From Promethearchaeota archaeon (lineage in GTDB: Archaea > Asgardarchaeota > Lokiarchaeia > Sigyniarchaeales > SOKP01), in NCBI GenBank assembly GCA_016840165.1, contig JAEOSU010000068.1, positions 1 through 43,347 of the forward strand: a stretch of DNA of 43,347 nucleotides, given 5' to 3'. Position numbers and translations under genes: made by a program. Positions 11,031 through 43,347 of this stretch are shown here, piece after piece (position 1 is the stretch's first letter; every line of letters begins with the position of its first letter). The notes beneath the pieces are model-generated. The model searched no databases. It saw only the letters and a program-made list of their open reading frames with translations, and was not told where the DNA came from.

Positions 11031-11168
11031 AGCGGGGTGGGCTAGCCTGGTTTATGCCGCAGGGCTCATAATTGAGGAAAGCACCTCCTCTTTAAGAAAC
11101 CCTGAGATCGTTCGTTCAAACGTTATAAAAAGTTGATCTCCAACTAACTGAAAATCGAACCCCCGCTA
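11031..11168 (+). tRNA. Initiator tRNA-Met(CAT) with two introns (37/38: 11071-11098; 59/60: 11121-11154)
   Basis: AGCGGGG/CCCCGCT acceptor stem (A1-U72), CAGGG/CCCTG anticodon stem with three G-C pairs, CAT at 11067-11069, GTTCG/CGAAC T stem; spliced length 76 nt. Confidence 0.93.
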
Positions 11169-34395: not shown

Positions 34396-34737
34396 TTATG
34401 TTCGACCCATTCTTTCTTGAATCGATATATTTTCTTCAGGAAATCCAAGATCTATCAAGAACTTTTTAAGTTTAAACTTATGATCTCCCTGTAATTCAAT
34501 TTCATTGCCTCGTACGGTACCTCCTGAAGCACACTTTTTCTTTGCTTGAGTTAAAATGTCTTTCAAGTTCGCATCAATGTTACCCTCAAACTTAATAACG
34601 GTAACTATCCGCCCCCATTTCCTTCTATCGTTAGAAATAATAATTTGTTGTTCGTCAGCGCTTAGACTATCACATATACATAGTTCTTTTGGAAAACTAC
34701 ATATGGGACAAATATCGTCGTCTTTAATACTCCTTAT
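34396..34737 (-). CDS. sui1: Translation initiation factor aIF1/SUI1 with non-canonical start (ATA 34737 or ATT 34728); missing from the ORF track
   Basis: Hand translation: (I)RS(I)KDDDICPICSFPKELCICDSLSADEQQIIISNDRRKWGRIVTVIKFEG...KKKCASGGTVRGNEIELQGDHKFKLKKFLIDLGFPEENISIQERMGRT*. CPxC..PKELCxC, RRxWGxxVT, GGT and IELQGDH are aIF1 hallmarks. Confidence 0.93.
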   Translation of the reverse strand: MRSIKDDDICPICSFPKELCICDSLSADEQQIIISNDRRKWGRIVTVIKFEGNIDANLKDILTQAKKKCASGGTVRGNEIELQGDHKFKLKKFLIDLGFPEENISIQERMGRT

Positions 34738-34927
34738 TCACAACCTTTATTATTAAAAACTTAATATAGTTCAGTATAAAAATAATAGAATAAAATCTTA
34801 TAAAAATCTTTTTTATTTCGATTTAAATCAACATTTCAGATCATGCATTTAATTTTAGCTTAAGCAATATTATAAAAATAAATTCTTTTTTATAATTAAT
34901 AACTATTTGGTAATAATTGGGATAAAT

Positions 34928-43126: not shown

Positions 43127-43347
<221 letters not shown>

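Follow-up and report, generated by a model that had tools for sequence, protein, structure and literature searches.

Initiation of an aIF1 Gene without a Canonical Start Codon

How is translation initiated at a gene for the initiation factor aIF1 when no canonical start codon precedes its conserved N-terminal motif, and why would such a start be kept? The question is raised by a locus in the window, by which we mean the whole stretch of DNA analyzed here (43,347 nucleotides, contig JAEOSU010000068.1 of the Promethearchaeota archaeon assembly GCA_016840165.1), where the minus strand at aIF1 reads TAA AGG TTG TGA ATA AGG AGT ATT AAA GAC GAC GAT ATT TGT CCC ATA TGT. An in-frame TGA (34740-34738, minus strand) lies ten codons 5' of the CPxC knuckle of aIF1, the first Cys codon of which is at 34710, and on this strand neither ATG nor GTG nor TTG occurs in frame between the stop and the knuckle, as the original prediction had stated. 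The stop-to-stop frame comprises 113 codons and ends with TAA at 34398-34396, and its earliest in-frame ATG, GTG, or TTG is a TTG at 34566, which is 57 codons past the upstream stop and already within the SUI1 domain. Among 2715 coding-like ORFs of the source genome, the gap between upstream stop and first canonical start has a median of 4 codons and a 95th percentile of 29, and the gap of aIF1 falls at about the 99th percentile. The list of ORFs lacking early canonical starts was dominated by antisense shadow ORFs until a codon-usage filter was applied.

The gene is otherwise intact, as had also been claimed. Its full-length SUI1 frame is uninterrupted and scores 58.2 bits against PF01253, for which the cut-off is 25.5, and residues 5-103 align with residues 3-101 of Methanocaldococcus jannaschii aIF1 (4MO0; E=8e-24). 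The predicted product thus has the archaeal-type knuckle and resembles a solved aIF1 over its full length, and by these features it is a normal aIF1. The source genome, a draft assembled from metagenomic data into 105 contigs, is 99.7% complete, has 6.3% contamination, and contains a single SUI1 match; the second, canonical aIF1 copy that could have relieved this gene of its function was not found in it. The aIF1 proteins of Sulfolobus solfataricus and Pyrococcus abyssi bind the small subunit near the P site and reject non-AUG codons (PMC4705826, PMC6237735), and by homology we infer that the window's aIF1 would do the same. The features discussed below are listed in table 1.

Table 1. Features of the aIF1 locus and of related elements in the window
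Feature	Position	Strand	Comment
aIF1/SUI1 coding sequence	34396..34728	-	110 codons plus TAA stop, as read from ATT 34728
Predicted start codon ATT (near-cognate AUU)	34726..34728	-	Conserved position; aligns with sister-family starts
N-terminal zinc knuckle CPIC-x6-CIC	34672..34710	-	Direct reading; aligns with the ICPRCGLPKELCVC stretch of 4MO0
SUI1 domain	34438..34653	-	PF01253 profile positions 2-77
SD-like element AGGTTGTGA	34738..34746	-	Contains in-frame TGA 34738-34740 and out-of-frame GTG 34739-34741
Purine-rich variable 9-nt spacer, ATAAGGAGT in the source genome	34729..34737	-	Length constant, sequence differs between species
Mini-ORF GTG AAT AAG GAG TAT TAA, out of frame	34724..34741	-	Judged a by-product of the SD-like element and ATT-AAA
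BRE/TATA-like block AAAAAAG-ATTTTTATAAG	34797..34814	-	Near-invariant in 18 same-genus upstream regions, flanks variable
3' end of 16S rRNA, GGATCACCTCCT	43128..43139	-	Anti-SD partner, within the window
Initiator-type tRNA, anticodon CAT, two introns	11031..11168	+	A1, GGG/CCC anticodon stem, CAT

Conservation of ATT 34728 within the Family

Our aIF1 loci were drawn from 154 genomes belonging to the order of the source organism, some of which (6,035,313 bp and about 4.4 Mb long) are assembled as a single contig; one locus of a closed genome (L079, G088:C1:1384781-1385406), in which the N-terminal part of aIF1 reads N, was left out of scoring. Among the 83 distinct aIF1 sequences of the window's family, 76, from at least nine genera, lack an in-frame ATG, GTG, or TTG in the interval from the last stop to the CxxC knuckle. 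Because the same gap recurs in so many distinct sequences, the 1-nt indel that had been considered as its cause is excluded, as is an assembly error. Codon -6, the position of ATT 34728, is ATT in 70 of the 83 sequences; ATT stands at codon -7 in a few more, ATC replaces it in three (one in each of three species), and ATG occurs in none, which agrees with what was expected of close relatives if the noncanonical start is real.

The sequence on both sides of this codon is informative. In genera g14, g15, g16, g22, and g23 an in-frame stop occupies codon -8, and where a stop lies two codons before ATT (TAG CGT ATT, TAG CCT ATT, TAA AAA ATT, TAG AGC ATT) only one codon, not a start codon, stands between the two. 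Genus g17 has no ATG, GTG, or TTG in any frame near the start of aIF1. The nine bases 5' of ATT vary freely and carry stops in the family, whereas codons -5 to -2 vary at third positions only (K, then D/E, encoded by AAA followed by GAC, GAA, GAT, or GAG). In sister families ATG, TTG, GTG, or ATA is aligned with ATT 34728, directly before CCN-AAA, giving a pattern of start codon, CCN, and AAA. The ATT is kept down to about 57% protein identity. Taken together, the nearby stops, the coding-like codons 3' of ATT, the free variation 5' of it, and the alignment with sister-family starts place the start at ATT 34728, and translation of aIF1 very probably begins at this AUU, positioned by a Shine-Dalgarno (SD) element and read by the CAU initiator tRNA, to give a protein that begins M-K-D-D-D-I-C-P-I-C. 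The predicted tryptic N-terminus is (M)KDDDICPICSFPK. By the same comparison the putative weak start is shown to be maintained by selection. The suggestion that aIF1 is initiated at AUA or AUU is in this way narrowed: a near-cognate start at ATT 34728 is upheld, but ATA 34737, which is not conserved, and ATT 34713 are not.

In four of the five g12 sequences, in g18, in g20, and in a second paralogue group, the GTG of the SD element is in frame and may serve as the start codon. The paralogue in question is a second SUI1 protein of some family genomes (L067-L071, L086-L088) that is about 60% identical to the main copy and is absent from the source genome; a perfect GAGGTGA precedes its ATT-AAA-GA by 8 nt, with the GTG in frame, and its start is ambiguous between GTG and ATT.

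The Shine-Dalgarno Element and the Upstream Region

The family consensus AGGT-N-GTGA is located at a constant distance of 9 nt (8 nt in a few sequences) 5' of ATT and matches the corresponding complement of the 16S rRNA 3' end, AGGAGGTGA, at seven of nine positions. In the source genome the element is AGGUUGUGA, which likewise agrees with AGGAGGUGA, the full complement of the 16S 3' end, at 7/9 positions, the two mismatches being central, and AAAGGTTGTGA is present in all same-genus sequences upstream of aIF1. Genome-wide, GTGA peaks 6-7 nt before starts, with a range of 3-12 nt, and the 9-nt spacing at aIF1 is longer than this optimum. In other genera the spacer carries in-frame TAA or TAG. 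Because both the in-frame TGA and the out-of-frame GTG lie inside the SD element, they are considered by-products of it. The proposal that the GTG mini-ORF is a regulatory uORF or the sign of an indel is not supported: its GTG and the TGA belong to the SD-like element, and in other genera the mini-ORF is absent or ends elsewhere.

The sole conserved promoter-like sequence is the BRE/TATA-like block 70-88 nt 5' of ATT, from which we infer that transcription starts near 34775, which would leave a 5'UTR of about 47 nt. A leaderless mRNA, in which the transcript would begin with the start codon and a TATA box would be expected about 26 nt 5' of it, was considered on account of an AT-rich, TATA-looking stretch 22-30 nt 5' of ATT, but that stretch is not conserved. 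RNAalifold analysis of 61 leaders revealed no conserved RNA structure over the aIF1 leader, and the minimum free energy (MFE) z-score of the leader in the source genome is -0.3.

Other Accounts of the Missing Start Codon

Given that the source is a draft metagenome assembly of many contigs with measurable contamination, an assembly or sequencing error, or else a decaying pseudogene, might be suspected; however, the arrangement is repeated in the 76 independent family sequences, the only genomic copy has an unbroken SUI1 frame of full length, and the protein is well conserved, and this account is refuted by conservation to the point that we give it practically no weight. It is also very improbable that translation starts at GTG 34741 and reaches the aIF1 frame at UAU-UAA-A, either by a +1 frameshift like that of prfB or by termination-reinitiation as in coupled ORFs. 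Such a route is in keeping with the presence of the five-codon GTG...TAA mini-ORF in 33/33 same-genus sequences and with the invariant A that recurs, within the genus, at every third base of the spacer and falls in position 2 of the mini-ORF frame. Across the family, however, the spacer is variable, and neither a conserved upstream start nor a conserved shift or overlap site was found in the family alignment. The mini-ORF is missing from g17 and L062, where no GTG, ATG, or TTG occurs in any frame nearby; in g13 and g16 it terminates early, and in the ATC species of g21 it meets no nearby stop. Moreover, the GTG is only 2 nt past AGG, which is too close for AGG to serve it, and GTG and TGA are both accounted for by the pairing of AGGUnGUGA with the 16S 3' end. 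The gene for RF2, prfB, is autoregulated by a +1 frameshift, and the likeness of the aIF1 locus to it, an SD-like element and, behind it, a short frame that stops just before the main frame (GGAG-UAU-UAA-A), is superficial, since the conserved upstream start and shift site are lacking.

Initiation at one of the other near-cognate codons, ATA 34737 or ATT 34713 (the codon before Cys), is as improbable as a frameshift. In the source genome both codons follow the TGA in frame, and the start assigned by NCBI to one relative is at codon -9 and gives MKSIKEDEIC, but in most relatives ATA 34737 is replaced by AAA, AAC, AGA, TAA, or similar codons. The codons from 34725 to 34714, which specify K-D-D-D/E, evolve as coding sequence, yet a start at ATT 34713 would leave K-D-D-D untranslated; furthermore, the SD spacing suits ATT 34728, whereas ATT 34713 is 24 nt from GTGA. 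Three further candidates were considered and rejected: slippage on an A-run (GTG-AAAAAA in some species), as the run is broken in the source genome and several others; reading of TGA as an amino acid, as relatives carry TGA-TAA or an extra in-frame TAG; and a TTG-TGA start-stop element, as TTG is replaced by TAG, TCG, or CCG in other genera.

Near-Cognate Starts Elsewhere in the Source Genome

To place AUU 34728 in its genomic context, we surveyed the source genome for codons that follow a perfect GGTGA at 5-7 nt, open a long coding-like frame, and have an in-frame stop shortly upstream. ATG was found at 38 of these sites, TTG at 18, GTG at 5, ATT at 15, ATA at 18, ATC at 3, and ACG at 4; the control codons AAT, TAT, and TTA were found at 6, 1, and 1 sites, respectively. 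GGTGA-led near-cognate starts are about as frequent as ATG (36 vs. 38), and ATT and ATA almost disappear when the distance is 8-11 nt. In at least 22 of the GGTGA-led near-cognate cases no canonical alternative lies within ten codons. For five of the proteins with near-cognate starts the position of the Pfam domain was tested: in GFO/IDH/MocA, the NAPRTase N-terminal domain, GDPD, and His_biosynth it begins at residues 2-8 and in an ABC ATPase at residue 20. The first canonical start of a small ubiquitin-like gene comes only at codon 76 of 84. Example near-cognate starts in the source genome (G000) are C58:133421(+), C54:278214(-), C54:159782(+), C51:3836(+), C50:7130(-), C4:44613(-), and C102:743(-). 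As judged from sequence, dozens of ordinary genes of the source genome appear to start at ATT, ATA, or ATC behind GGTGA, aIF1 is not unique in this respect, and near-cognate initiation would plainly be workable in the source organism.

Pattern search and blastn identified no second initiator tRNA with another anticodon, a partial check in that ARAGORN found 11-22 tRNAs and missed intron-bearing ones. Because the sole initiator tRNA found has the anticodon CAT, AUU would be read by the ordinary Met-tRNAi with a mismatch at the third position. The gene for this tRNA is itself overlooked by ARAGORN; one of its introns follows the anticodon loop and the other is in the T arm, and the first contains CACCTCCT, which is identical to the string at the 16S 3' end.

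Depth, Recurrence, and Gene Specificity of the Weak aIF1 Start

In the two control genes examined, NAPRT and HisB, near-cognate starts are labile. The ATT of NAPRT is present in two close species only, with TTG in a relative at 80% identity and ATG in more distant orthologues, and the ACG of HisB is confined to one copy, with ATG or TTG in the paralogue and all relatives. The two HisB copies (G000 C102:141-749(-) and C50:7754-8356(-)) are 77% identical; that on C102 has ACG and the other ATG, and C102, a 2.2-kb contig, may be a strain variant or contamination.

In aIF1, weak starts are also seen beyond the window's family. In a phylum-wide sample CTG appears as the aIF1 start in six or more f9 genera (L181-L187 and L228 among the loci), with GTG at the same position in sister genera, and weak starts occur further as CTG in f6 (L172), ATA in f11 and f17, and ATT in genus g64 of f9; g5 and g10 have ATA as well. 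Often a stop lies two codons upstream of the weak start, as in several of the CTG loci. The partner factor aIF1A, in contrast, has ATG, TTG, or GTG where its N-terminus is expected in 72/72 loci of the same families and a noncanonical start in none (0/72). The aIF1A start is ATG in most of the window's family; almost all f9 genera (L286-L298) and several other Asgard families have TTG behind GGAGG. The source genome has two aIF1A copies (C95:35794-36000 and C26:20436-20642). Because of its deeper conservation, its recurrence, and the canonical starts of aIF1A, aIF1 stands out within the near-cognate habit of these genomes: its putative weak start is gene-specific and recurrent across Asgard families.

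Possible Autoregulation of aIF1 Synthesis

The original prediction connected the noncanonical start with autoregulation of aIF1, and precedents exist in the other two domains. The bacterial infC gene, which encodes IF3, has an AUU start and is autoregulated at the level of translation (Butler et al. 1987, as cited in PMC4705826). As with infC, the gene of a factor that rejects noncanonical starts would here begin at AUU behind an SD element, and the odd codon is conserved; unlike in infC, for which feedback is proven, feedback at aIF1 is putative, and the folds of IF3 and aIF1 are unrelated. Also, whereas Escherichia coli has a handful of AUU genes, the source archaeon has dozens of near-cognate starts. 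The eukaryotic gene for eIF1 (SUI1) has an AUG in poor Kozak context and is autoregulated (Ivanov et al. 2010, as summarized in PMC4705826 and PMC3326321). Here the proteins are homologous (PF01253), and in both the factor's own site is suboptimal for the discrimination that the factor performs; the eukaryotic arrangement, however, depends on the weak context of an AUG and on scanning, whereas in aIF1 the codon itself would be near-cognate and SD-placed. Proteogenomics of Deinococcus deserti revealed unusual noncanonical starts (PMC2830850), and the GTC start of Streptomyces sigR is repressed by IF3 (PMC5472188). The present case resembles these in that ordinary genes start at ATC, CTG, GTC, and similar codons and in that the level of a fidelity factor would tune their translation; it differs from these bacterial cases, which have experimental proof, in that it concerns an uncultured Asgard archaeon and comparative evidence, and in that the fidelity factor's own gene is among those with near-cognate starts.

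In the mechanism that we envisage, the imperfect long SD element, 9 nt upstream, would position the 30S subunit on the aIF1 mRNA, and the CAU initiator tRNA would pair with AUU 34728 with the third position mismatched. As aIF1 would destabilize non-AUG initiation complexes, its own AUU would be rejected more often when the factor is plentiful, and more complexes would get through when it is in short supply; the loop would also set the stringency for the dozens of genes started by ATT, ATA, ATC, or ACG. In S. solfataricus aIF1 prevents the formation of 30S complexes on AUU (Hasenohrl 2009, as cited in PMC4705826), and if the window's aIF1 rejects AUU as the Sulfolobus factor does, its own translation would fall as it accumulates. 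Two hallmarks of the infC and eIF1 type, a noncanonical initiation site of the factor's own and selection for a weak start specific to the gene, both appear to be present at aIF1, and indirect support for autoregulation comes from the deep, gene-specific, and recurrent weak starts of aIF1 as compared with those of aIF1A (0/72) and with the labile controls. We lean, by a little, toward the view that the weak start is kept most likely for negative feedback by aIF1; the explanation as a whole, comprising the start at AUU 34728, selection for a weak codon, and negative feedback, we regard as rather probable.

The AUU could also be the true start with no feedback attached to it, in which case start choice would simply be relaxed and the weak codon would either give a low, fixed output of aIF1 or be tolerated. 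This reading, which we hold to be possible but distinctly less likely, is consistent with the dozens of genes that start at ATT, ATA, ATC, or ACG behind GGTGA in the source genome and with the absence of a regulatory RNA structure around the aIF1 start. Because so many other genes have such starts, the feedback reading loses the argument from uniqueness, and if many near-cognate starts are tolerated, aIF1 may be poor at rejecting AUU, and any feedback would then be weaker. Against simple relaxation, ATT or ATC is held in at least nine genera with zero ATG, while the near-cognate starts of NAPRT and HisB turn over within the genus; aIF1A has no near-cognate start at all; and weak aIF1 starts, with differing codons, have originated repeatedly among other Asgard families. 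In addition, were AUU to be rejected as it is by Sulfolobus aIF1, a dependence of aIF1 translation on its own level would follow mechanically.

Negative feedback through the weak start thus remains the reading that we prefer, and within the near-cognate use of the lineage as a whole we would place the ATT of aIF1 with the infC/eIF1 arrangement, as a new variant from the archaea. A broader version of it, which we put forward tentatively and consider doubtful at present, is that AUU-started aIF1 acts as the set-point of a lineage-wide relaxed start choice, so that its level would retune the class of genes started by ATT, ATA, ATC, ACG, and CTG together. If this were true, the set-point would correspond, in archaea, to the eIF1/eIF5 stringency circuit of eukaryotes and would have arisen repeatedly in Asgard archaea, with ATT in the window's family, ATA in g5, g10, f11, and f17, and CTG in f6 and f9. 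In the literature we found no report of a near-cognate start of archaeal aIF1 or of aIF1 autoregulation. Fidelity factors that throttle themselves through poor starts are represented by IF3 in bacteria and eIF1 in eukaryotes; an archaeal case would complete the set, and it would do so in the lineage closest to eukaryotes, with a direct homologue of eIF1.

Annotation of aIF1 in Asgard Genomes

Gene callers were expected to miss or truncate aIF1, and this is borne out for some annotation sources but not for others. The JGI and ENA calls begin at internal codons and give proteins of 74-90 aa, whereas the NCBI pipeline (PGAP) reads the ATT of relatives as Met and reports their aIF1 as MKDDDIC..., under the name YciH. 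The 56-aa truncated product had no exact match in the protein collection. Prodigal-type callers cut the essential factor aIF1 to 74-90 residues in more than 100 Asgard genomes and likewise truncate dozens of other proteins per genome, and those comparisons of the Asgard translation machinery that are built on such calls are biased. According to a review, the aIF1 gene of S. solfataricus was formerly mis-annotated as frameshifted (PMC8211752).

In one ENA protein (P0002), which begins MWKKSIKDDD..., the TGA of TTG-TGA-AAA was read as Trp, the wrong genetic code having evidently been applied to these contigs. A different in-frame stop was observed in two MvhD/VhuD-like frames of the source genome (G000 C29:63288-63689(+) and C79:12171-12446(-)), each of which contains a single one between ...GADGV and RPDECQF... 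that looks like a selenocysteine codon. Lokiarchaeial selenoproteins have reportedly been published, and a selenocysteine reading of these frames would fit with them.
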